Positions 1-13,085 are shown, counted from the first letter of the stretch. The stretch is DNA of 32,000 bases from Nitrososphaera viennensis EN76 (GCF_000698785.1 NZ_CP007536.1:120001-152000); one strand, 5' to 3'. Translations and numbers: made by a program. The notes: generated by a model not told the origin, from the letters alone.

Positions 1-742
1 GTGACTTCTTGATACCTTCGAATGATCTGTTGGTGCCTCTCTGGGGAGGCATATACTCGGACATGCCAAGTGACAAAACCTTGGTTGTAATCCCCGATAC
101 ATTAAGCGCGGGATGCTGGTTATCCGGGTAAACGGAAGGATGTATGAAGAAATGGCACATTAGCAGTACAAAGGTTTCAGGGCTCAGTAGGTTTAATGTT
201 GAATTAAAGGCAGGCAACTCTCTTATTGTCGGTAACATAGCGTCACCAATCAGCCTGTTGTATGCCATGAAAATCCTTATCGTGTCGACCCCCAGGGCTC
301 CCAAGATGTTAGCAACATAAAACGGCAGCGGATCCGGGCTTTGCCCGTTTATAACGACTAGGCGCACCTCTGTTTTCTTTATGTGCTGTTGTAGGCATTC
401 ATTCAGACCCTTGATCCATCGCTCTTTGGCCAGTTCAAAACCCTTGTCCGACGGCTCATCTCCCATGTAGTGGGCTACAACATCAGAATGTGTCTCAAAA
501 GTCGTCCGGCCGGCTAGCATAGGCACGAGGTTGTCATCCGGGTAGGCAGCCATTACTGGTAGGATGTCTCCCCTCAAGTGCTCAGGGACGAGCGGTACTA
601 TCTTTTGAAGCTCTGTCTCATCTGGCACAAGTTCCGGTTCACTAATGCGTCTTTCATGTATGAACAGGGCGGAGTCGTTGCTATACTGTGACAGTGCATA
701 GGAGAGAAGACGTTTGTCGGTGGACCGCCATAGTAATAGCAT
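1..742 (-). CDS. Hypothetical protein, N-terminal 247 codons only (ORF runs off the left edge); possibly a regulatory or sensor protein of the island
   Basis: Hand translation of the minus strand from ATG (complement of 740-742) stays open to position 1: MLLLWRSTDKRLLSYALSQYSNDSALFIHERR...KKTEVRLVVINGQSPDPLPFYVANILGALGVD...LLSPETFVLLMCHFF. It is absent from the ORF track because no stop lies in the window. A TATA-like tttaatataaa sits about 25 nt upstream on its strand. No methyltransferase, helicase or nuclease motif was recognised. Confidence 0.5.
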   Translation of the reverse strand, partial: MLLLWRSTDKRLLSYALSQYSNDSALFIHERRISEPELVPDETELQKIVPLVPEHLRGDILPVMAAYPDDNLVPMLAGRTTFETHSDVVAHYMGDEPSDKGFELAKERWIKGLNECLQQHIKKTEVRLVVINGQSPDPLPFYVANILGALGVDTIRIFMAYNRLIGDAMLPTIRELPAFNSTLNLLSPETFVLLMCHFFIHPSVYPDNQHPALNVSGITTKVLSLGMSEYMPPQRGTNRSFEGIKKS

Positions 743-780: not shown

Positions 781-816
781 AAATGACGTATTTAGTAATG
801 ACTAACTTCGTCATTT
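781..816. promoter_or_regulatory. Operator-like inverted repeat AAATGACG-N20-CGTCATTT in the divergent promoter region, with a third AATGAC copy inside the spacer
   Basis: Read directly: aaatgacg at 781-788 and cgtcattt at 809-816 are perfect reverse complements. taatgact lies at 797-804. The repeat sits between the minus-strand start at 742 and the plus-strand start at 855, next to the TATA-like tttatattaa at 761-770. Confidence 0.35.
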
Positions 817-854: not shown

Positions 855-3800
855 ATGACACAAACCGCTGTCCAAAAGGCAGCAACTGAAACCATATCAC
901 ACCAAGTCAAGAGCAACGCTTCTCCTGAGATGAAGGTAGTTGATGAGATTACATCTGCAGTACTAACAGCTTCGATGTTTGACCACGGAAGAGATATCAG
1001 GTATGCAGGTATCACTGATGTCTTGTTCCCAGAGGGCTATACATTTGTCCGGCGGAAGCTGGGAAGGAATATCACCGTACCATCAGTGCATACAACAGAG
1101 TTCATCGTAGACGGGGACGACGGCGAGCTCGTGGTCGAGTTCCGTTTTATCCAGCCACGAATCCGCGGGCTTAGGCAGAAGTACCCGGACGGGAGGTGGA
1201 TCCGTTTATCCTCAAGACCATTTGTGCTTGATGGTAACACCTACCAAGCTGGGAACGAAGAACCATCGGAGAAAATGATAACGACTGGTCCACTGAAGTT
1301 AAAAGACCTGTTGTCAAAGAAATACAAGAAAGTATTCGCCGCCAAGAAGGAAAGGGTAGAAGAGCTCATCAAGGACAGCAAGGATAAGGCACAGGCAATG
1401 TTTGTCCGTGAGGTAGCCGAGTCAAAAATCGAGGTAAATGTTGCCTGTAGGCGGCTAGGCGACAAAGAGGGCAGGTACAAAGTCTCTATCAGGATCCAAA
1501 ATGTGATTCCAATAAAGCTCTCAGGGGTCAGGCCATATAATGCCGAGGAAGTGATGAAGAAGTCGCTTTTTGGCGCGTATACCTTAGTCAAATCTTCTAA
1601 GTGTACTCTGCTAGACACCGGCAATGAGGAGGCGATGAGAGAGTGTGCTAACCTGAGCACCTACCCTGTCAAATCCAGTAAGAGTTCCGACACACTTTTT
1701 TCTTCGCCGGTGATTGTCTACGACTATCCATGGTTCGAGCCCATCAACATGACAACCTCTCTGAAGGAGATAGTTGCCGACGATAAGACACTCCTATCCC
1801 ACATGCACCTGCTCGATAAGAACGAGGTCTCCGTACTGAAGAAGTCCGGCAAACTCGCGAAAATCCTAAAGGTATTCAGAGCACTTGCCGAAAGTACAGA
1901 GGGTAAGGTAGATCGTCTCTACCAATTCCAGTGGGACGCTATACAGAAATTCATCAAAAGCCTCCTAAAAGACGACCCCGGAGTATTGATTATCAGGGCA
2001 CCTACAAACAGTGGAAAGTCCTTAGTTTTCTACACCTGTTCTGTCCTGATATCAGTACTTAGGGACGACGTTAAAGGCACCGCGACCTTTATCACATTTC
2101 CGACGCGTGCGCTAAACTCCCAGCAGTTTAGCGAGATGGTTAGCTTCTTCTACCACTTGAACCAAGCAGGGATCAACATCAAACTTGGCCTGTACATGGG
2201 CCAAGAAGACGATGCTGCTGTGAAGATATTGAGCACACAGTACGTCAAGGAAGGCGACGAAATTGCCATCATCGAAAGGTGTCCGAACCCAGCGTGCCAT
2301 CATGACAAGATAGTGGCTACAAAACCGTCTGAGAATAGGTTAATACCGATGTGCGAAGAGTGCAAGACAACACTACCCTACATACTGCTGACTAATTGGG
2401 AGACTCAGGACTTTTGTCCGGAAGTAGTGGTCGGAACGCCTGACAAGATAGTAAACTCACTCACGCATAACGTATACACTCACACACTTTTCGGCGCGCC
2501 CTGTAAGAAATGTCCCAACTGTGGTAGGCACTATCCCCTCTGTCTGAAAGATCAGCGCGAGTCTGTTGCAAAGTGCAGGGGATGTGGAACGGCACTTGAT
2601 AACTCTACTATCACTAGGTCGACGCCAAGGCTTGTCGTCTTTGATGAAATACACACACTTACTGGCACACAGGGAAACTTACTCGGACACTTCCTCGCAT
2701 TACTCAAAACGGTCGGGTCGATCTATGACATACCCCGTGGTTTCTGGTATGTCGGTGCCACCGCGACAGTCGCTAACCAAGAGGAGCTAGTCTCGAACCT
2801 GACAGGTTACGAAAAGGATAAACAAACTGTCTTTCCTGAGAAAGAAGAGTTCCTAAAGAAAAGTGATGGCAGTGGCTATTTCGTTAAGAGGGATGATAGG
2901 ATAAGGCACAGGTATGTGATAGTAGAACCGCTCGGTGTAACCACAAGAGGGTCGGTGTCCCAGTTAACCAGCTCGCTACATTCATTCCTTGACAACGCAA
3001 GGAAGATGGAGGGGATCGTCAAACTCGAACTAGCAAAGAAAGGGCTTACCATAGACGAGGCATACGGCACACAGACAGTCTATGTCCTGCGTAAAGACGA
3101 CGGAAGGGACTTGGAGAAATTCATTCCCGACTTCGCCCATGGGACGGGGCTTAGGCGGCCTAAGGTCAAGTTCGGCAGCGGTGACCTATCGTCCTCACAG
3201 CTTGTCCAGCTTAACAGGGCGGTAAAGGAACACAGCCTTGATGTCCTACTAGTGACCCAGATCTATGGTCAGGGGGTAGACTTTCCGGGGCTCAATATAA
3301 TCCACTTCTTTGGGACGCCGCGGTCTTTTATCGAACTAGCACAAGTAGTTGGCAGGACTGGAAGAGGTGACGTGCCTGGCCTTGTACTACTACACCTAGT
3401 GCCGCAGATACCTAGGGACGAGTGGGTCTACCAGAACTTTAGGTACATGATAGGAGACCTTGAGGCCCACTACGAGCCAACACCAATCAATGTAGCCAAC
3501 AAGTATGCCATATCATTATCACTCCCTAATGTATTCCACACCTTGATTATGGCTAGGGCATATGAGGACCACCAGATGAGGTATGCAGACTACGTCCACG
3601 GTAGACTAAACACCGACAAAGCCCTACTCAAGGATATCTTGGAGGAGGCAATAGGGGTCTACGAGCGGCCTTCGATGACAGCGGTGGAGAAGAAGGAGTT
3701 AAGGACAATGGCGTTCATGAAAGCCCGTGAGATGATAGTAGACTTTGCCGGATCGAAGATAGAGACCATCAAACACCTGTCAGCGAAAGATGTTTTGGTG

Positions 3801-3911
3801 CCAACACTAAGGGAAAAACACAAGGTGATCCGCTACTCTGAAGCGGTCAGGTATTCGGCATTAGATGGTTTGAGTGCGTCAGGCGAAGACATAGTGGAGG
3901 CTGATGATTGA
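855..3911 (+). CDS. SF2 DExH-box helicase, DrmA-like (DISARM-type helicase), with a ~380-aa N-terminal domain of unknown function and a double zinc-ribbon insertion
   Basis: 1018-aa ORF. Helicase motifs in order: I APTNSGKS (nt 1998-2021), Ia PTRALNSQQ, II VVFDEIHTL (DEIH at nt 2643-2654), III GATATV, V QGVDFPG, VI QVVGRTGRG (nt 3342-3368). CxxC pairs CPNPAC..CEEC and CKKCPNC..CRGC lie between motifs Ia and II. The stop overlaps the next start (TGATG). A DUF1998 gene and then a PLD gene follow. Confidence 0.75.
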   Translation: MTQTAVQKAATETISHQVKSNASPEMKVVDEITSAVLTASMFDHGRDIRYAGITDVLFPEGYTFVRRKLGRNITVPSVHTTEFIVDGDDGELVVEFRFIQPRIRGLRQKYPDGRWIRLSSRPFVLDGNTYQAGNEEPSEKMITTGPLKLKDLLSKKYKKVFAAKKERVEELIKDSKDKAQAMFVREVAESKIEVNVACRRLGDKEGRYKVSIRIQNVIPIKLSGVRPYNAEEVMKKSLFGAYTLVKSSKCTLLDTGNEEAMRECANLSTYPVKSSKSSDTLFSSPVIVYDYPWFEPINMTTSLKEIVADDKTLLSHMHLLDKNEVSVLKKSGKLAKILKVFRALAESTEGKVDRLYQFQWDAIQKFIKSLLKDDPGVLIIRAPTNSGKSLVFYTCSVLISVLRDDVKGTATFITFPTRALNSQQFSEMVSFFYHLNQAGINIKLGLYMGQEDDAAVKILSTQYVKEGDEIAIIERCPNPACHHDKIVATKPSENRLIPMCEECKTTLPYILLTNWETQDFCPEVVVGTPDKIVNSLTHNVYTHTLFGAPCKKCPNCGRHYPLCLKDQRESVAKCRGCGTALDNSTITRSTPRLVVFDEIHTLTGTQGNLLGHFLALLKTVGSIYDIPRGFWYVGATATVANQEELVSNLTGYEKDKQTVFPEKEEFLKKSDGSGYFVKRDDRIRHRYVIVEPLGVTTRGSVSQLTSSLHSFLDNARKMEGIVKLELAKKGLTIDEAYGTQTVYVLRKDDGRDLEKFIPDFAHGTGLRRPKVKFGSGDLSSSQLVQLNRAVKEHSLDVLLVTQIYGQGVDFPGLNIIHFFGTPRSFIELAQVVGRTGRGDVPGLVLLHLVPQIPRDEWVYQNFRYMIGDLEAHYEPTPINVANKYAISLSLPNVFHTLIMARAYEDHQMRYADYVHGRLNTDKALLKDILEEAIGVYERPSMTAVEKKELRTMAFMKAREMIVDFAGSKIETIKHLSAKDVLVPTLREKHKVIRYSEAVRYSALDGLSASGEDIVEADD

Positions 3912-5665
3912 TGGCCATAGAAGAGACTACAAAGAATTACCTGCGCCTAACTGACTGGCAGGCTGTCACCAAGAGGTTCCCATCTTCAACGTTCGACTCA
4001 GAACAGAAGTCCTTCAGGGTAATGGCCTTCATAGGTCGCACATACGAAAACGAACAGATACAACGTAACCTAGCAAACATAATTTCGCGCATAGAATCGA
4101 GGAACTCTGGCATAAGCATACAACGGAGGTCGAGTATGACCGGGCAACCTAGCGGGCCAACTAGAACTAATGTACTAGAAGAGCTTGCAGAGGAGCTAGG
4201 AATAGACACTGCCGGCGGCGAAGATAGCAGTAGTACCTTAGTCCAGAAACTACCCTCACTTGTATTGCCGCAACAGGTGAAACTGATATTACCTGACGAG
4301 GCAAAGATAATGCTCTATCCACGCGGACTTAGGTGTTCTACGTGTAGTTACTACATCCTTCAGGTGGATATGGGCAAACACACAACTCTCCAGTGCCCCG
4401 GCTGCGGAAAGGACAAACTAAGACAGATCTCTAACCTGTTCTTTTGCAAGAAATGTGGTAATCAACACGAGATCACGCCGCCATTTACAGAGCCCGAAAG
4501 GGACGGACCACGTTTTCGTTGCACCAAGGATGGCTGCGCCTGCGCTGGCACAGGCCACCTGAAGTTAAAGCTTGAGAGACCCCTTTCAAGATCCAAGTGG
4601 ATATGCGACAAGACAGGCAACGAAGTTAGCCGCGTGATTTACTCTTGTCCCTCCTGTGCACGCTGGACGGGAGTGAGAGATCCTGCCCATATGAAGCTGG
4701 TGTCTACGACGGAGTCGTACATGAAGCCAATGACGTTTAGTACGGTATACGTGTCGGGCAACCTGGAGTTCAGTCTTGAGAATGCAGTCCCTACATGGAC
4801 GCTGAATGAAGCACCATCGGATGTCGGACAGACAATAAGGGAGTACGGAATCAGAGACGTACATCTGATAGATGACATAGAGTCCTTTACAGTAGTATAT
4901 GGCTACGCACCGTACGGTGATGAAGTACAACCAAAGACGTTCAAGTACAGGAACCCAGACACTAGGACATTCGAGTACCACGCATACACCACTATGAGCA
5001 AGGGCAAAGCGATCCTGGTACTATTGGACAAAGGAAGGGTTTGCAGGGTAGTACTGGAAGACTTGGCAAAGGAAGGAGCTGACGAATACACGCGTAATAT
5101 GGCCAAAGAATACCTGAAGACAGTAAATGAAGACCCGGCAGCAGCTTACACTTGGCTAGCCGGGCTGACAAGAAATGTCATGACCGCCCATACCGCAACT
5201 CCAGCAGCAAACACATCCTTGTTTAAACTACTACATTCCGTCGAACATGCCCTCACCCATCATGCTTCGCTCAGAACCGGGCTGGACGAATCGACATTTG
5301 TAGGCAAGGTGCTCGTGGACGACTGTGCTGTGCTCATTTACGAGCGGGCTCAAGTCGAGGCAGGCGGTGTAGAGTACCTAGCACGCCACCTGCTCGCCCC
5401 GTGGATAAGTGGAGCTGTAAGGCATGTCCGGGACTGCAGGTACGAGTGTGCCGAGGGCTGCGTCAAATGCCTGTATATCCAAGACCCTATGTGCCATCCG
5501 CTGCTACCGCGTGAAATTCCAGACACTTATTTGTTGCCTAACGCCCTGCTCAGTAGGAAACTGCTAGTGGACTTCTGGGGCCTTGTAGGTATCGCAACAG
5601 TAGTGGAAAAAAAGGTTACAGATTTCGATGTCCCGAGTGACACCGACGGGGAAGAGGAGGATTAA
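3911..5665 (+). CDS. DUF1998 / MZB (MrfA-type zinc-binding) domain protein, DrmB-like, with a cysteine-rich N-terminal half
   Basis: The ORF track starts at TTG 3908. ATG 3911 overlaps the upstream TGA (3909-3911). The C-terminal region LLHSVEHALTHHASL...CAVLIYERAQVEAGGVEYL...CRYECAEGCVKCLYIQDPMCHP matches the DUF1998 pattern: a conserved His-containing helix, an IYD/E..GG.G element, then a C-x3-C-x3-C-x2-C zinc cluster. The N-terminal half carries CSTC..CPGC, CKKC..CTKDGCAC and CDKT..CPSC. Confidence 0.75.
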   Translation: MAIEETTKNYLRLTDWQAVTKRFPSSTFDSEQKSFRVMAFIGRTYENEQIQRNLANIISRIESRNSGISIQRRSSMTGQPSGPTRTNVLEELAEELGIDTAGGEDSSSTLVQKLPSLVLPQQVKLILPDEAKIMLYPRGLRCSTCSYYILQVDMGKHTTLQCPGCGKDKLRQISNLFFCKKCGNQHEITPPFTEPERDGPRFRCTKDGCACAGTGHLKLKLERPLSRSKWICDKTGNEVSRVIYSCPSCARWTGVRDPAHMKLVSTTESYMKPMTFSTVYVSGNLEFSLENAVPTWTLNEAPSDVGQTIREYGIRDVHLIDDIESFTVVYGYAPYGDEVQPKTFKYRNPDTRTFEYHAYTTMSKGKAILVLLDKGRVCRVVLEDLAKEGADEYTRNMAKEYLKTVNEDPAAAYTWLAGLTRNVMTAHTATPAANTSLFKLLHSVEHALTHHASLRTGLDESTFVGKVLVDDCAVLIYERAQVEAGGVEYLARHLLAPWISGAVRHVRDCRYECAEGCVKCLYIQDPMCHPLLPREIPDTYLLPNALLSRKLLVDFWGLVGIATVVEKKVTDFDVPSDTDGEEED

Positions 5666-5673
5666 AGGCAGAA

Positions 5674-6534
5674 ATGGAACCTCAACAGGTATTCGATCTG
5701 GTCCGCAGGTCAAACGGCAAGACCCTCAGCCAACTCCTTACATCGGTCATACCCGCTGATAGAAGCTTAGTGGAGCTGCAGCTTATGATGCTCGCGAGGG
5801 ACGGGGTGATCGAGCTCAATAGGAAAGGAGGCGACGACTATTCAGTCAAGGTGAAAAATTTGCCTCGTGTGGGTAGTGTTATTGAAAAAAGAAAGGTCGC
5901 ACCGATACTGGATCACAGGGCGGATATTGTGGCTACGTTGCCTACATCATTACACAGGGGATCCAAAGAGCTTGGTCAAGGCGTAGCCACAACAGATAAA
6001 GTTTTCAGATCTCTGCTACGAGGTGCAAACAGGTATGTCAAGCTCTGTCTCCCATTCCCCGAAGAGGCTGTAGCTTCGTACTTTGCGGACGAAATAACAA
6101 ATCTAGCTAGGTCAGGAATACCAATGAGGATCATAACAAGGGAAGTATTTACAGAGAAGAATGGGACATCGTATGGTAACCTAGTAAAGGCATTGATGAG
6201 AGTATATGATATTTACAGGAGCTGCGGGGACGAGAGAAAGATCGAGATTCGAGACTTCCACATCGGTCTGAAGAGCAGAGGGTTCAACATGCTGCATTAT
6301 GAATCCGTCCACGCGAAAATAGTCTTGGCGGATGGCGTACAGTGCTACCTAGGTTCGGGAGAATGGCGCATCAATTCACTGTATAACAATTTCGAATTAG
6401 GTGTGGTACTGACTGGCGGGATAGTGAGCAGAGTCGAATCACTATATGATCTGGTATGGCAGCACGCCAAGCCCATAAAATACGAATTCTTAAGTAATAT
6501 GCATAGGAAATCTGGGAATACTAGTCAGGGTTGA
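5674..6534 (+). CDS. Phospholipase D (HKD) superfamily nuclease-like protein, DrmC-like, with an N-terminal winged-helix-like domain
   Basis: Starts 8 nt after the DUF1998 gene stop. There is a single HKD motif, HAKIVLADGVQCYLGSGEW (nt 6310-6375), i.e. HxK-x4-D-x6-GS, with E where the canonical N sits. The N-terminal ~60 aa (LSQLLTSVIPADRSLVELQLMMLARDGVIELNRKGGDDYSVKV) look like a wHTH. Confidence 0.7.
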   Translation: MEPQQVFDLVRRSNGKTLSQLLTSVIPADRSLVELQLMMLARDGVIELNRKGGDDYSVKVKNLPRVGSVIEKRKVAPILDHRADIVATLPTSLHRGSKELGQGVATTDKVFRSLLRGANRYVKLCLPFPEEAVASYFADEITNLARSGIPMRIITREVFTEKNGTSYGNLVKALMRVYDIYRSCGDERKIEIRDFHIGLKSRGFNMLHYESVHAKIVLADGVQCYLGSGEWRINSLYNNFELGVVLTGGIVSRVESLYDLVWQHAKPIKYEFLSNMHRKSGNTSQG

Positions 6535-6627: not shown

Positions 6628-7140
6628 TCAATATCCGATTATCATGATCCCTTTTAATGGCAGATGTAAGCGGCGGCTGGCATACAATGTATCAAAGTAC
6701 TTAATAACTGTCTCAAAATCTCCTCTTTTCCGATAGATCCTCCGCACTGCAATTACAAGATATTCAACATCATGCATCATACAAGCTTCAAATAGGTCTT
6801 TCAGAAACTGATTATTGTCTACCGCCCTCCCGGCTTCTATTTCTAAAACAGTTTTTGTTTCTCGGTTAAATCCATCTGCGTAAAATGATTTTTCTACCTC
6901 TCCATTTCTCCCAAATAACACTGGAACTAGAACCTTCGATGAACCAGCTTCTACCACGAAGCCTAATTGTTCTAAGTTTTCCTTAGCTATACTCATCACC
7001 TCATTGCTTTTGAGTTTCTTGTTAGAGGAGTCTATAGCAGCTTCACAGTAGATAAAAACACCAGCAACTTTACGTAGATGTTCTGGTGCGTTGTCTGATT
7101 TCGGAAAGTATATCCAGTTTACCAAACGCTCTGGAGGCAC
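6628..7140 (-). CDS. PD-(D/E)xK restriction-endonuclease-fold protein, BglII/BamHI-like catalytic pattern
   Basis: 170-aa ORF convergent with the PLD gene. It carries a D-x10-E-x-E pattern, YADGFNRETKTVLEIEAGR (nt 6835-6876), followed by QFLKDLFEA. This resembles the D..ExE/ExQ core of BamHI/BglII-type enzymes. The G+C is low, like the rest of the island. The assignment is from motif memory only. Confidence 0.45.
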   Translation of the reverse strand: MPPERLVNWIYFPKSDNAPEHLRKVAGVFIYCEAAIDSSNKKLKSNEVMSIAKENLEQLGFVVEAGSSKVLVPVLFGRNGEVEKSFYADGFNRETKTVLEIEAGRAVDNNQFLKDLFEACMMHDVEYLVIAVRRIYRKRGDFETVIKYFDTLYASRRLHLPLKGIMIIGY

Positions 7141-7293: not shown

Positions 7294-8097
7294 CTATTCT
7301 TTTGGAGTCGGGTTTGTCTCGTCGGTGATGAGCTGCAGGAGGTCGGCCCTGGTAAACGGCTTTCTCAGAACCTTGATGCTGTCGTTCTGCACCTTTTTGG
7401 CTATCTCTTCCTGCGTGTACTCGAACGCGGTGATGAATATCACCTTGGTGTTGGGCGATATCGGGTGGATGTTCTTGTAGACTTCAAAGCCGTCCATGCC
7501 GGGCATCCTGATGTCCATCACTGCCATGCCGTACTCGGTGCCGTTGCGCTTGGCGTTCTCTATGGCCTTGACGCACGCCGGCCCGCTTTCCGCGGTCTCG
7601 ACGTCAAACCCGCGCTTTTTGAGCACCTCCCGTATGGAGCTGCGTATGTCCTCCTCGTCGTCGACGATTATCGCCTTTTTCAGTTTCGTCGGAAAATGCC
7701 TTCCAACCGACGAGTAGATGTCGGGGATTGCGCCGGGGTCGATGATGCCGATTGCAATCAGCGTGAGGTCGTTTTCCAGCGGGTACATGATGATGTCCAT
7801 CGCGTTGTACTGGACGTGGATGTTTGACGTTATCCCGGTCGTGGGGCTGTTGACGTTAAAGGCGCCCTTGGCAATGTTTGTGCGGAGCGCCGTCTTGACG
7901 ATGTCCTCAGGCGAGAGCTGGCGGATGGAACTCTGCGGCAGCTGGCGTGCGGCCTTGGCCATGATGTTGGCATACTTGTCCGTGACCATAACAAGGTCCA
8001 GCTGCTTGTTTTCTGCAAGAATAGTCTTGCAGCGGCTAGTATAATCGGTTTCTGTATTTGACGTACTGAATAAATTCAGCCTTGATTTTAAAAACAT
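7294..8097 (-). CDS. Response regulator with a C-terminal receiver (REC) domain and an uncharacterised N-terminal domain
   Basis: REC signature: KKAIIVDDEEDIRSSIREVLKKRGFDVETAESG...GMAVMDIRMPGMDGFEVY...VIFITAFE...LRKPF. The ORF track extends to 8391, but that extension overlaps thyX. The Met at 8097 (MFLKSRL) leaves a 94-bp AT-rich divergent promoter. Confidence 0.75.
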   Translation of the reverse strand: MFLKSRLNLFSTSNTETDYTSRCKTILAENKQLDLVMVTDKYANIMAKAARQLPQSSIRQLSPEDIVKTALRTNIAKGAFNVNSPTTGITSNIHVQYNAMDIIMYPLENDLTLIAIGIIDPGAIPDIYSSVGRHFPTKLKKAIIVDDEEDIRSSIREVLKKRGFDVETAESGPACVKAIENAKRNGTEYGMAVMDIRMPGMDGFEVYKNIHPISPNTKVIFITAFEYTQEEIAKKVQNDSIKVLRKPFTRADLLQLITDETNPTPKE

Positions 8098-8191
8098 TTT
8101 GCTACTGGGGCGACAATCCTTGCAAAAGTGGCCGTTATTTGAGATGAGGCTGGTTTTAATAATGGACCCCACCTTGCATTGGTGAGATACG

Positions 8192-9850
8192 ATGGCAGCA
8201 GTGGACCAGGGCGCCTTTTTGGATTCTTTTACCGATGAAGAGAAAGCCGTGCTTGCGGGCCACTTTTCAAATACCGACAGGGCGGTGTTTGCGGTAACCA
8301 CTCCAAGGCAGGTGGACAGGGGCGCGCTGATGTCGCGGTATTCCCGGACAGACAAGAGCATGCGCCGGGTCTTTCTCGACGAGTTTGCCAAGAACCCAAA
8401 CCGGGGAGAAGAGTTTTACCGCAAGGTTTTGCTCGAATACGGCGACGACTCGGTCGCCGAGCTTGGCGAGGCGCAGGTTGCCCTTGAAGGCATATCAAAC
8501 ATTGCCGCAAAAAAGATAGAGGACCGCAGGATCGGGCTTTCGTACCTGGAAAAGTCGTCTCGCTACGTCCCGTTCGACCAAAAGGTCGCCGGCGGCATGT
8601 ACCGCTATCTGCGGGAGGGGCGCATAATGTCGTCAAGGCACGCCGACCGCTATATTGCGGCATGCGACCTTGCATTTGATACTTATAGCAAGAGCCTGCC
8701 TGCCATGACAAAATTCCTGGAAGAGCAGGAGCCGATAGACAAGTTTTCTTTCTTCGATTCTTCCTTGCAAAAGGAAAGGCAGTTTGGCAGCCTGAAGGAG
8801 CAAAAAGACATCGACGCCGCGCGGCGCATATACCGCGTCACGATAAGGGCCAAGGCGCTTGACCTCCTGCGCGGCCTCCTCCCTGCCTCCACGCTGACAA
8901 ACGTCGGCATAACCGGCAACGGCAGGGCGTTTGAATACCTGCTCACGATAATGCACGGCTCCCACCTTGCAGAGCTGCGCCTGCTTGGCGAGCAGCTGTT
9001 CTCCGAACTGAACGGAGTGATACCGTCGTTTGTCCGGCGCGCAAACGACAAGTACGGCCAGGCCATGCAGGCATATTTTGCAAAGACGGAGGGCGCGGTG
9101 CGGGACCTTGCAAAAAAGCACCTGTCCGGGATAGGCCCGGAGCCAAGCCCTGAAAGAGTCAGGCTGCTTGAGCCGGAGGACAACTTTGCCGCAGAAGTCA
9201 AGGTGGCGTCAGCCGTCCTGTACGAGCAGGCTGACGGCAGGCCCCTTGAAAAGGTGATGAGGTACGTCAAGTCCATGCCGTCGCAGGACCGGCACGGCAT
9301 AATCCGCGCCTACACGCAGTTCCGTGAAAACCGCAGGCAGAGGCCGGGCAGGGCCTTTGAGATGGTCGACTGTGTGTTTGAATTATTCACCAACTTTGGC
9401 ATGTTCCGCGACCTGCACCGCCACCGCGTGCTCACGCTTGAGCGGCAACTGCTGTCGACAAGGCACGGCTATGACATGCCCGGGGAAATAAAAGGCGCCG
9501 GCCTTGACAGGGAGTTTCAAGAGTGCATGTCCGCGTCAAAAGATGCCTATGAGGCGATTGCAAAAGAGATGCCCGAAGAGGCGCAGTACGTCGTCAATTT
9601 CGCGTACCGCTATCCGTATTTCATGAAGATGAACCTGCGCGAGGCCTGCCACATGATCGAGCTGCGCACCGTGCCGCAGGGCCACCCTGACTATCGGCAG
9701 GTCTGCCAAGAGATGTACCGGCAGCTGCAAAAAGCCCATCCAGTCCTTGCAGAAGGGATCAAGTTTGCCGACATGAACTCTTACCAATTGGAACGCTTTG
9801 ATGCCGAAAAGCGCGCCGAGAAAAAGAGGCGGGAATCTGAAAGGCAATGA
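8192..9850 (+). CDS. thyX: Flavin-dependent thymidylate synthase ThyX, double-length (fused two-domain) form
   Basis: 552 aa. ThyX-type elements are split between the halves: [10 protein letters not shown] (an S..ExSxRY-like element) in the N-terminal half and [15 protein letters not shown] (the RHR motif) in the C-terminal half. MIELRT...GHPDYR lies near the C-terminus. Confidence 0.75.
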
Positions 9851-10526: not shown

Positions 10527-10569
10527 TTTTGACACAGTCATCATTATACCTACTTACAAACAATTGCGC

Positions 10570-11394
10570 ATGAGCGAAGAAAAGCTCGCATTCGTAGGCA
10601 AGCAAGTCAAGGACATCTATGGGACATTCATCGGAAAGGTAGTTGGCATAATCACGGAAATCGACGGCGAGATCGAAAGCGTCGGCGTGGACTGCGGCTC
10701 TGCAGGCATCAAGCAGCTCCCGTACGAGCAGCTGGTGGTCCAGGGCGATTTCGTATTCTTTATTCCAAAGTGGAGGCTTGAAGCGCAGAAACTTATCAGG
10801 CAAAAGTCGCTCACGCTCAAGAGGATGAAGGCGCTCCACGAGATCGTGGCCGAGAACGACGGCATGAAGGAGGATGCAGAGCTTGTGTCGATAAAATACG
10901 AGAAAAAGCTGGGCGAGATTAACGAGGCAGAGAAGGCGGTCAGCGACAAGCTGACGGCGCGCCTCGCAGAGCTTGACGCTGAGGCCAAGCAGGTCAAGGC
11001 AGTGCTCTTTGACGCCAAGCTCCAGTTCAGGAGCAACGAGATGAAGGAAGAGACGTACCAGCAGGTCAAGATTAACACCGACGAGCTGGTCGAGCACATC
11101 AACAACGAAAGGACCGAGATCGGAAACGTGAGGGCCAAGCTGTCAGGGCTGACACTTGAAAGCATCACAGCCGATGCAGCGACAATCACGACAACAGAAG
11201 CCCCGGTAGACTCGACACCTTCCACAACCGAGTCGGCCCCACAACCAGCGGCCTCCCAAGCAGAGCCAGTAACAGCTAATACTGCGCCTGCAGAGGAAAA
11301 GCCAATAACGGTCACTGCAAGCGACAACAACAGCAACAGCAACAACAATGAAGGCCACGACGCGGCCTGGCTGAACCAGGTAATCCAGCAGTAA
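10570..11394 (+). CDS. cdvA: CdvA-like cell-division protein (PRC-barrel-like N-terminus, coiled coil, low-complexity tail)
   Basis: The N-terminus FVGKQVKDIYGTFIGKVVGIITEIDGEIESVGVDCGSAGIKQLPYEQLVVQGDFVFFIPKWRLEAQKL matches the thaumarchaeal CdvA barrel region as I remember it. A long heptad-like coiled coil and a T/A/P/N-rich tail follow. ATG 10570 is preferred over the TTG at 10564. Confidence 0.65.
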   Translation: MSEEKLAFVGKQVKDIYGTFIGKVVGIITEIDGEIESVGVDCGSAGIKQLPYEQLVVQGDFVFFIPKWRLEAQKLIRQKSLTLKRMKALHEIVAENDGMKEDAELVSIKYEKKLGEINEAEKAVSDKLTARLAELDAEAKQVKAVLFDAKLQFRSNEMKEETYQQVKINTDELVEHINNERTEIGNVRAKLSGLTLESITADAATITTTEAPVDSTPSTTESAPQPAASQAEPVTANTAPAEEKPITVTASDNNSNSNNNEGHDAAWLNQVIQQ

Positions 11395-11492: not shown

Positions 11493-13085
11493 CTACTGGA
11501 TATGCGGCTCTTTTATCCTATAGTCGTAATACGTCTCTCCGAGCTGGAACGGGTCTTTAGTGTCTGAAGGCCTGCCGGAAATGGAGCTTTTTATCATGTT
11601 TGCAGTAAACAGCACCATCGCAGAGCCTGTTATCCAGGCGCCTATGGTCGAGAGCTGGTTCAGCAGTATCAGCGGCTCTGTGGGCACGTAGTCAAACACG
11701 CGCCTTGGCTGCCCGTACAGGCCGGCAACGTGCTGCGGTATGAAGATGAGTGAAACGCCGATGAACATGAGCCAGAACTGGACCATCGCCGCTTTTTCGT
11801 TATACATCCTGCCGGTTATCAGCGGGAACAGGTAGTACATGAACCCGACGAAGGCAAAGGTCACCAGCCCCATCAGGAAGAGGTGGAAGTGCCCTACGAC
11901 CCAGTAGCTGTCGTGCGTGAGAAAGTCAAGCGGCATGGCGGTATTGACGACGCCCCCTGCCCCTGCCAGGAAGAACAGCACTGTGCCGCCGACCGAAAAG
12001 GTGATCGGGGCCTTGAAACTTATCCTTCCGCCCCACATCGTCGCAATCCAGTTAAACACGTGCATGGCAGACGCAGGGACCGCCGCAAGCGTTCCGACCA
12101 TAAAGACGGTTTTCTCGGTAAAGCTCTCTCCCGTTGAAAACATGTGGTGGCCCCATGAGGCAAAGCTGACTATTGACAGCAGGACAAACGCCGTGACCCC
12201 TGACTGGTAGCTGAATATCGGCTTTCTTGAAAACCTGGGCACTATCTCGTATATCATGCCGACAGCAGGTATCAAAAAGATGTACACCTCCGGGTGGAAC
12301 GTGAACCAGAACAGGTGCTGGTACGCTATCGGGTCTCCGCCCCTTGTCGGGTCAAAGAATCCCGTTACCCCGAGCCGGTCCGTGTACAGCATGATGAGAG
12401 CAGCCGCAAAGGTGGGTATGGCTACGAGTATCATGATGGACGTGACCAGTGTTGCCCACACAAAGAGCGAAGTCTTCATCAGCGGCAGGTCCGGGTGCTT
12501 CATCTTTAGTATCGTGACTACAAAGTTTATCGAGCCGAGGATTGACGAAATTCCAAGCATCTTTAGCCCAAAGATCCACATGTCTGTCGCCGGCCCCGGC
12601 GCGCGGATTGTAGAGTAGGGCGGGTAAGCGGTCCACCCCGTGTCTGAAAACCCAAGCCACACCAGCGCCGCTCCTACCGGTATTATCCAGAACGCCACCG
12701 CGTTGAGCTTGGGCCAGGCCATGTCTTTGTACCTAACCATGAGCGGCACGAGGTAATTTCCCATGCCTGCCGCAAAGGGTATCACCCACAGAAAGAGCAT
12801 GGTCGTTCCGTGCACAGTAAAGAACCTGTGGAAGGTGGTAGAGTCCGGGAAAATCTGCTGCCCTGGCAGGAACAGCTCGGTCCTTATGCCCATCGCAAGC
12901 GCGCCCCCAATCATCAGTGAGGTGATGGAGAAAATTACGTAAAGAAGCCCTATGTCAGTGTGATGAGTGGAGAAGAGGATTTCCCACAAGGGGCGAGGAT
13001 TTTTCACTTCCAGAACCATTCGAATATGCCTCCGCAACGATTTTCCGCATTCGGGGAGTTTTGCTGCTATAGCTGCCCAGTTCAT
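11493..13085 (-). CDS. Heme-copper (cytochrome c/quinol) oxidase subunit I
   Basis: Signatures: HHTDIGLLY, FFTVHGTTMLF, WTAYPPY, HLFWFTFHPEVYIFLIP (CuB His and cross-link Tyr), WGHHMF, VVGHFHLFLMG, and about 12 TM segments. The start is uncertain: M at 13085 or the internal MVLEVKN at 13019. Confidence 0.85.
   Translation of the reverse strand: MNWAAIAAKLPECGKSLRRHIRMVLEVKNPRPLWEILFSTHHTDIGLLYVIFSITSLMIGGALAMGIRTELFLPGQQIFPDSTTFHRFFTVHGTTMLFLWVIPFAAGMGNYLVPLMVRYKDMAWPKLNAVAFWIIPVGAALVWLGFSDTGWTAYPPYSTIRAPGPATDMWIFGLKMLGISSILGSINFVVTILKMKHPDLPLMKTSLFVWATLVTSIMILVAIPTFAAALIMLYTDRLGVTGFFDPTRGGDPIAYQHLFWFTFHPEVYIFLIPAVGMIYEIVPRFSRKPIFSYQSGVTAFVLLSIVSFASWGHHMFSTGESFTEKTVFMVGTLAAVPASAMHVFNWIATMWGGRISFKAPITFSVGGTVLFFLAGAGGVVNTAMPLDFLTHDSYWVVGHFHLFLMGLVTFAFVGFMYYLFPLITGRMYNEKAAMVQFWLMFIGVSLIFIPQHVAGLYGQPRRVFDYVPTEPLILLNQLSTIGAWITGSAMVLFTANMIKSSISGRPSDTKDPFQLGETYYDYRIKEPHIQ

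Follow-up and report, generated by a model that had tools for sequence, protein, structure and literature searches.

A very probable class-2-type DISARM locus without detectable DrmE, on a low-GC island of the ammonia-oxidising archaeon Nitrososphaera viennensis EN76

Does the DISARM-like gene triplet of Nitrososphaera viennensis EN76 operate without a DNA methyltransferase, or does it only look that way? The question was raised by a 32,000-nt stretch of this genome (the window), in which the first-pass annotation had described a drmA-drmB-drmC core of DISARM, the restriction-modification-associated defence island system, on a foreign-looking island, had seen no methyltransferase beside it, and had proposed a methyltransferase-independent or otherwise re-wired relative of the system. 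To look past the left edge of the window we used L001, a 133-kb metagenome contig with an identical locus that reaches 10 kb further left than window base 1 (window coordinate = L001 coordinate minus 9146), and on it a C5 cytosine methyltransferase of the DrmMII type lies 2.2-3.4 kb beyond that edge. The apparent lack of a methyltransferase is an artefact of the window edge, which cuts the island in two. The locus is very probably a DrmE-less, class-2-type DISARM system acting against viruses and plasmids, carried on an integrase-bearing island of low guanine-plus-cytosine (GC) content.

The core on which this reading builds consists of the following genes, in window coordinates:

drmA, 855-3911, plus strand: a 1018-aa DExH helicase of superfamily 2 (SF2) (AIC14309 / WP_075053546)
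drmB, 3908-5665, plus strand: a zinc protein of the DUF1998/MZB type, 585 aa from a TTG start or 584 aa from the ATG at 3911 (NVIE_001280, AIC14310 / WP_075053547)
drmC, 5674-6534, plus strand: a 286-aa single-HKD protein of the phospholipase D (PLD) family (AIC14311 / WP_075053548)

These genes are contiguous and co-directional, as the DISARM core is defined, with a TGATG at 3909-3913 forming a 4-nt stop/start overlap between drmA and drmB and an 8-nt gap (5666-5673) between drmB and drmC. The three reading frames, their strand and their coupling were reproduced as first annotated, and every motif that had been claimed for the three proteins was found in the translated sequence. In DrmA these are GKS at residue 387, DEIH at 597 and QVVGRTGR at 830, and the protein matches the Pfam families DEAD (2.4e-11) and Helicase_C (4e-9), the latter being the pfam00271 domain that marks DISARM DrmA. 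It aligns with PADLOC model PDLC02573 from end to end (residues 1-1018 of 1018, 2467.7 bits) and with further DrmA models at 8e-20 to 2e-5, and its top NCBIfam model is DISARM_DrmAS (4e-18, 64.7 bits vs an equivalog cutoff of 950). Among PDB sequences the top match is YprA/MrfA (6znp, 1.2e-8), followed by a DrmA (7s9v, 1.3e-6); the likeness to MrfA/YprA reflects a shared helicase-MZB superfamily, not orthology.

Placing DrmB required a wider set of sequences. The protein has HSVEH at residue 443, IYE at 477 and the cysteine cluster CRYECAEGCVKC at 510-521; across the family the four cysteines (C510, C514, C518, C521) are invariant, along with several other cysteine pairs, and so is the HSxEH helix. 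The N. viennensis protein itself has no Pfam MZB/DUF1998 match at E<=0.1, whereas Pfam MZB matches 7 of 10 DrmB orthologues (best 1.2e-8), RefSeq names the protein 'DUF1998 domain-containing protein', and PADLOC recovers it over its full length with PDLC02581 (residues 1-585 of 585, 1430 bits) and over residues 437-529 with a second DrmB model, PDLC02582 (7.8e-8). Because single-sequence and profile searches against PDB sequences failed to retrieve Serratia DrmB and returned zinc-ribbon noise only, we set DUF1998 membership by way of the orthologues and PADLOC; judged from these and from the invariant cysteine cluster and His-helix, the protein qualifies as the DUF1998/MZB (pfam09369) partner that stands beside the helicase in DISARM. 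The expectation that both smaller core proteins would hit their domain profiles was thus borne out directly for the 286-aa protein and, for the 585-aa protein, not in Pfam itself but through the PADLOC DrmB models and the orthologues. DrmC carries one HxKx4D motif, HAKIVLAD, at residue 213 (window 6310-6333), matches PLDc_2 (pfam13091), the family expected of DISARM DrmC, at 2.2e-8 (34.5 bits vs a cutoff of 27), and aligns with PADLOC PDLC02600 over residues 1-286 of 286 (679.1 bits), with 20 further DrmC models also matching (21 in total); its top NCBIfam model is DISARM_DrmC_I (6.8e-6, under cutoff).

All three core proteins find their best matches among DISARM models, and the original assignment of the triplet as DrmA-DrmB-DrmC holds. 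The PADLOC matches run end to end at ~2.4 bits per residue. PADLOC models are clusters, at 30% identity, of proteins taken from published defence-locus lists, and a score of this size is what one expects of a model built on the protein itself, so that the N. viennensis proteins are evidently PADLOC seeds in singleton clusters.

Left of the window, and partly within it, we found these genes:

C5 cytosine methyltransferase (PF00145), L001 5754-6902: 382 aa, 2.2-3.4 kb left of window base 1
HhH-GPD (MutY/Mig-like) glycosylase, L001 6865-7536: 223 aa, overlapping the methyltransferase 3' end
451-aa accessory gene, on L001 between the glycosylase and the 322-aa gene, minus strand: divergent from drmA
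322-aa accessory gene (NVIE_001260), L001 8920-9888, minus strand: divergent from drmA, with its 5' part (~247 codons) at window 1-742, its start codon at 740-742 and the remainder off the left window edge
Tyrosine integrase, L001 3887-5296: 469 aa, matching phrog_1 at 1.6e-9 and Pfam weakly

The methyltransferase matches PF00145 at 5.7e-63, TIGR00675 at 7e-61 and the PADLOC DrmMII model PDLC02650 with 704 bits, so the class 2 modification gene DrmMII (pfam00145) is present, encoded outside the window. Its companion belongs to the MutY/Nth family (TIGR01084, 5.7e-43) and also matches the REBASE-type 'nicking' class (5e-37). The observation that the island part visible in the window holds no methyltransferase motifs was accurate, and no methyltransferase is visible in the window itself; the proposal of a methyltransferase-independent or re-wired DISARM that had been built on it is refuted by the gene past the left edge.

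Assigning the locus to a class turns on what accompanies the core. Class 2 DISARM has been defined by the presence of drmMII (pfam00145) beside the core triplet, joined 'on occasion' by drmE (bioRxiv 10.1101/2021.12.28.474362), and with its core and its C5 methyltransferase the N. viennensis locus satisfies that published definition. The PADLOC definition of type II DISARM is stricter and requires DrmE, for which no island protein gave a PADLOC match even at E<=10 and none gave an NCBIfam match. Neither of the class 1 genes, the SNF2-family drmD (pfam00176) and the N6-adenine methyltransferase gene drmMI (pfam13659), lies within +/-10 kb. Leftward extension, which had been suggested as a check, thus turned up the DrmMII-type methyltransferase and neither an SNF2 nor a DrmE gene, and what is left of the 're-wired' idea is that DrmE is absent and that two conserved genes of unknown function stand in its place. 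We know of no experimental study of DISARM in archaea, and our literature search found no paper specifically on DISARM in Nitrososphaera or ammonia-oxidising archaea.

Relatives of this locus are few. We found 10 DrmB relatives among 5.8 billion proteins, a single one among 185,579 GTDB species representatives (in a Bathyarchaeia metagenome-assembled genome, L007), and none in a scan of viral contigs. The independent loci that could be read, either as DNA (L007, L010, L011 and L013/L014) or, for P0027, through gene-caller output and precomputed Pfam annotation, are arranged as follows, with identities given relative to N. viennensis:

L007, DrmA 47% identity: integrase ... Vsr, C5 methyltransferase, 444-aa and 322-aa genes, divergent from drmA-drmB-drmC, then phage portal and DUF2213 genes
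L011, DrmA 47% identity: C5 methyltransferase, 453-aa and 318-aa genes, divergent from drmA-drmB, where the contig ends
L010, DrmA 43% identity: C5 methyltransferase, HhH-GPD, 423-aa and 295-aa genes, divergent from drmA-drmB-drmC
L013/L014, DrmA 35% identity: a 451-family gene, divergent from drmA-drmB-drmC, which is followed by HhH-GPD and C5 methyltransferase genes
P0027 contig (JGI 3300056388), DrmB 74% identity: 326-aa and 450-aa genes, divergent from drmA-drmB-drmC; an EcoO109I-like gene (faint match) and an SNF2 helicase gene

For P0027, direct sequence comparison covered the 450-aa, 326-aa and DrmB proteins. The core order is the same in L007, L010, L013 and, by annotation, P0027, and L011 shows drmA-drmB up to its contig end. 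A C5 methyltransferase gene lies beside the core in all four of the further loci with readable DNA (L007, L010, L011 and L013), and a T:G repair gene, either HhH-GPD or Vsr, accompanies it in L007, L010 and L013, the L011 contig ending just past the methyltransferase. This constancy of linkage contrasts with how far the parts have moved: core proteins of the related loci fall to 27-47% identity, the methyltransferases share 26-31% identity with the N. viennensis enzyme, and their orientation varies between loci. Turnover of the methyltransferase with retention of its function argues for functional coupling to the core, as would be expected of a modification module that sets specificity. The glycosylase gene overlaps the methyltransferase gene and is swapped for Vsr in L007, which points to a partner that repairs the products of 5-methylcytosine deamination.

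Alongside these loci we observed several local peculiarities. The glycosylase is translationally overlapped with the methyltransferase in N. viennensis, L010 and L013, and the L007 methyltransferase is paired with a Vsr endonuclease (the pairs lie at L001 5754-7536 and L007 6109-7578), giving two non-homologous answers to 5-methylcytosine-deamination repair on the same defence system. The L007 DISARM unit stands directly before two genes (L007 16045-19513) whose products match Phage_portal_3 (a phage portal protein, 1.2e-33) and DUF2213, and is preceded by an integrase gene (5e-22); it may ride on a tailed provirus, and a published survey has recorded DrmA and DrmC on the Bathyarchaeia tailed provirus BATPV2. 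Next to the L013 core, a 481-aa gene (L013 10132-11577) encodes a C-terminal GEIDAV...VLVVEAKSPK that resembles the D...ExK motif of PD-(D/E)xK enzymes, which would make its product a possible extra nuclease; it has no homologue in N. viennensis. In P0027, the closest locus outside N. viennensis, the stretch beyond the 326/450-aa pair holds the EcoO109I-like gene and encodes an unknown protein of 404 aa, an SNF2/ResIII helicase of 608 aa and a NOV_C protein; these extra genes may represent either another modification/restriction partner or a defence system next door.

Several points weigh against reading the N. viennensis locus as a class-2-type DISARM system. DrmE is undetectable there, and PADLOC requires it for type II; in the Bacillus class 2 system it was essential (bioRxiv 10.1101/2021.12.28.474362). 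Two opposite-strand genes separate the methyltransferase from the core, so that the former might, formally, be part of an independent modification/repair module, and along the 6.5 kb of the P0027 contig that can be seen to one side there is no PF00145 gene. Similarity to DrmA and DrmB of the bacterial class 1 and class 2 systems, from which a mechanism would have to be transferred, is only remote (the NCBIfam DrmA score quoted above lies far under its cutoff). The 451-aa family includes a widespread stand-alone chromosomal clade without DISARM genes nearby and is accordingly not exclusive to DISARM. Finally, that the locus has already been catalogued as DISARM is something we infer from the PADLOC model matches.

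The position of the methyltransferase, outside the drmABC operon and beyond two genes on the other strand, would suit a methyltransferase-independent DISARM in which DrmABC, perhaps with the 451/322 pair, senses the structure of DNA ends, and the methyltransferase and glycosylase form an unrelated orphan cassette. The P0027 contig, with its visible side free of PF00145 genes, is in keeping with that account, as are literature reports that class 1 DISARM restricts DNA partly independently of methylation and that DrmAB recognises 5'-overhang single-stranded DNA. We nonetheless regard it as unlikely, since the core has a C5 methyltransferase beside it in each of N. viennensis, L007, L010, L011 and L013 despite the divergence of the core proteins, the changes of orientation, the low identity among the methyltransferases themselves and the exchange of HhH-GPD for Vsr; linkage that persists through such turnover argues for functional coupling, and the N. 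viennensis enzyme scores 704 bits on the DrmMII model.

A housekeeping or damage-inducible repair module, in which a helicase and an MZB protein work as in MrfA with a nuclease partner, had also been offered as an alternative, and it can draw on the helicase's top PDB match to YprA/MrfA, on the kinship of the DrmB C-terminus with the MrfA Zn-binding (MZB) domain family and on the DNA glycosylase encoded in the island. Unlike in MrfA, however, helicase and MZB protein are encoded separately, DISARM models give the best scores for all three proteins, and the glycosylase gene overlaps that of a methyltransferase and is replaced by Vsr in L007. The distribution is also wrong for such a module: the system is extremely rare and patchy (10 DrmB relatives in 5.8 billion proteins), it sits on a low-GC island with an integrase, one relative lies beside virion genes, and another, at L012 1259-3601, is a decayed remnant that retains the last ~125 aa of DrmA (73% identity), a DrmB frameshifted into 446 and 125 aa (64% identity) and the first 60 aa of DrmC. 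A locus that is rare, low in GC, linked to integrases and sometimes decayed speaks for defence and not for housekeeping repair, and we hold the repair module to be highly improbable. The single relative among GTDB species representatives points the same way. To a Dpd-like system (7-deazaguanine modification/restriction) or another defence system built on a helicase and DUF1998 we give almost no credence: the helicase does match DpdJ (9.5e-16 in PADLOC, 2.5e-15 in NCBIfam) and, weakly, DpdF, and DUF1998 is common to Druantia and Dpd in the literature, but the matching DrmA models outscore and outnumber these, genes 2 and 3 match only DrmB and DrmC models, no dpdA/B/C-type (tgt/queuosine-pathway) or Druantia genes occur within +/-10 kb, and the accompanying modification enzyme is a C5 methyltransferase.

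If the locus is a class-2-type DISARM system, a mechanism can be sketched by transfer from characterised bacterial DISARM (PMC9142583; bioRxiv 10.1101/2021.12.28.474362). By that analogy the methyltransferase would mark host DNA with 5-methylcytosine at a specific motif, and the glycosylase would repair the T:G mismatches that arise when 5-methylcytosine deaminates, limiting the mutagenic cost of the mark. A DrmA-DrmB complex would load on single-stranded DNA or 5'-overhang ends of unmethylated incoming DNA and block its replication, with DrmC serving as an accessory PLD nuclease. Of the two additional proteins, the 322-aa one is most likely a DNA-binding regulator of the divergent promoters, acting through a palindrome at 784-813, and the 451-aa one is a candidate accessory subunit, its gene standing where that of DrmE stands in Bacillus.

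This accessory pair, with its palindrome, is the only fresh, unexplored part of the locus. N. viennensis, L007, L010 and L011 each carry a 451-family and a 322-family gene adjacent to drmA and divergent from it, with homology verified by sequence; in P0027 this layout can be read only from gene sizes and Pfam annotation, and in L013 the 451-family gene stands without a 322-family partner. Four independent archaeal loci, verified by sequence, combine the pair with the core and a C5 methyltransferase, and P0027 is a fifth that shows the pair by sizes and Pfam. Orthologues of the 322-aa protein in the same position share 35% identity in L007 (4e-56), 35% in L011 and 26% in L010 (3e-19), and the family has five relatives in 5.8e9 proteins (56-88% identity), of which one, P0052, shares its contig with DrmA/DrmB, the only such case among the relatives with readable context; from these occurrences the family looks restricted to DISARM. 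A C-terminal winged helix-turn-helix (wHTH) signal in the family is weak (PadR at 0.01 in the L007 orthologue, a CARF3/Csa3 wHTH region at 0.046), and the AlphaFold2 model of the protein is unusable (predicted local distance difference test score, pLDDT, 44).

The 451-aa protein gave a better AlphaFold2 model (pLDDT 82, predicted template modelling score 0.47), and Foldseek found no match for it in the PDB at E<=0.001. An exhaustive profile search returned 34 representatives of its family in 1.84 billion clusters, none longer than 481 aa. The stand-alone clade mentioned above comprises all 27 metagenome loci found by the 451-family profile (L016-L042) together with L008 and L009, all on thaumarchaeal chromosomes. 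Its members have ~31-34% identity and 440-455 aa and come from soil and sediment contigs of thaumarchaeal type (for instance L008 10001-11335 and L009 10001-11335). In L009 the gene is divergently paired with one for a Vps4/CdvC-like MIT-AAA ATPase, and on the opposite strand of several metagenome loci a weak P-loop match lies ~1.4 kb upstream, possibly an ATPase neighbour of the L009 type. We also considered whether the 451- and 322-aa proteins (773 aa together) might be a split DrmE, and at sequence level nothing supports this: there is no DrmE match in PADLOC or NCBIfam, and the exhaustive profile search gave no long relatives.

Between the 322-aa gene and drmA lies a divergent intergenic region of 112 nt, and within it one further element:

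Palindrome, 30 nt, window 784-813, no strand: TGACGTATTTAGTAATGACTAACTTCGTCA, a candidate operator

A perfect match to TGAC-N4-TTAGT-N4-ACTAA-N4-GTCA that lies 41 nt upstream of the drmA ATG, it is singular in the window, where the pattern TGAC-N4-TTAGT-N4-ACTAA-N4-KTCA occurs once in 32 kb vs 0 expected. The palindrome recurs at the equivalent position in L007 and L011, whose proteins share only 31-48% identity with those of N. viennensis, and is thus conserved in three verified loci, whereas L010, the most divergent locus with a 322-family gene, has a different repeat, TTTGTCCGGA, present three times. These arrangements suggest that the palindrome is an operator bound by the 322-aa protein. 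By eye only, we noted AT-rich TATA-like elements on either side of it, TTTATATT at 761-768 and ATTTAGAAA at 811-820; the former lies ~20-27 nt upstream of the start codon of the 322-aa gene and would suit a leaderless transcript.

Taking pair and palindrome together, we tentatively entertain the possibility that the locus stands for an archaeal subtype of DISARM not described before, with a two-gene module in the place of DrmE. This would consist of the 451-aa protein, which has no sequence or structural relatives outside its tiny family and appears either to derive from a stand-alone chromosomal gene of soil Thaumarchaeota or to have given rise to it, and of the wHTH-like 322-aa protein, which would control the divergent promoter through the 30-bp palindrome. 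Were this true and the 451-aa protein indispensable as a subunit, it would define the way in which class-2-type DISARM manages without DrmE.

Evaluating the wider setting, we found the GC content to be 43-50% over ~L001 3000-16500 vs 52-58% in the flanking ThyX, CdvA and COX1 region, and this drop, together with the integrase, agrees with the early description of a foreign island in a thaumarchaeon. At the island ends there is no tRNA gene and there are no att-like direct repeats within 23 kb. One gene lies at the low-GC right end of the island:

Orphan open reading frame, 170 aa, window 6628-7140, minus strand

This gene had been taken for a PD-(D/E)xK nuclease, an assignment that found no support in any library, the protein having no match in Pfam, PADLOC, NCBIfam, PHROGs or PDB sequences. 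GC content around it is 40-43% and related DISARM loci contain no homologue, and it is probably island cargo and not a conserved DISARM part. To the right of the island the core genome begins with a 365-aa open reading frame (window 7294-8391, minus strand), for which gene callers choose a later start giving 267 aa; it has the receiver domain of a response regulator at residues 241-355 (6.6e-24) and a long N-terminal part that went unmatched. The right flank then continues with ThyX (8192-9850), CdvA (10564-11394) and COX1 (11493-13085).

The main value of this analysis is a correction, in that the locus only looks methyltransferase-less and should not be chased as a new mechanism of self/non-self recognition. 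Beyond this, N. viennensis is a cultivated model ammonia oxidiser and so offers a tractable archaeal example of DISARM, and the conserved accessory pair with its operator-like palindrome, in the place of DrmE, is a small testable handle on the role of accessory components in class 2 systems.

Comparison with known systems places the locus among several relatives. It resembles MrfA/YprA (the mitomycin-repair helicase of Bacillus subtilis with its fused MZB domain; PDB 6ZNP) in having an SF2 DExH helicase that works with an MZB/DUF1998 zinc domain, but differs in carrying the MZB domain on a protein of its own (585 aa) and not on a single polypeptide with the helicase, in that a PLD nuclease, a methyltransferase and an integrase make up the context, and in being sporadic and island-borne where MrfA is chromosomal housekeeping with an MrfB exonuclease as partner. 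Cassettes that join a C5 methyltransferase to T:G repair are well known, as Dcm-Vsr or in the M.MthTI-Mig.MthI type; the overlap of the N. viennensis methyltransferase gene with that of an HhH-GPD MutY/Mig-like glycosylase recalls the latter and the Vsr partner in L007 the former, and in contrast to both, the consistent neighbour of the cassette is a DISARM core and not a type II restriction endonuclease. Class 1 DISARM of Serratia sp. SCBI (DrmD-DrmMI-DrmA-DrmB-DrmC, with or without DrmMII; DrmAB solved by cryo-EM as 7S9V/7S9W; PMC9142583) has DrmD and DrmMI, which N. viennensis lacks within +/-10 kb, and a DrmA longer than the N. viennensis protein by ~300 aa; the two share the DrmA, DrmB and DrmC families, and the four-Cys DUF1998 cluster and extra cysteine pairs of Serratia DrmB (PMC9142583) are found in N. 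viennensis DrmB as well. Against the class 2 system of Bacillus paralicheniformis (drmE-drmA-drmB-drmC-drmMII; Ofir et al. 2018, as related in bioRxiv 10.1101/2021.12.28.474362), the N. viennensis locus stands apart in its archaeal host, in having no detectable DrmE, in its very divergent core proteins (far under the NCBIfam equivalog cutoffs), in a methyltransferase found outside the operon, 3 kb upstream, together with the T:G mismatch glycosylase to which it is coupled, and in the lineage-specific genes, one of 451 aa with an unmatched fold and one of 322 aa, that separate methyltransferase and core. What the two have in common is the contiguous, co-directional triplet, a PF00145 C5 methyltransferase in the same locus and a mobile or defence-island setting.

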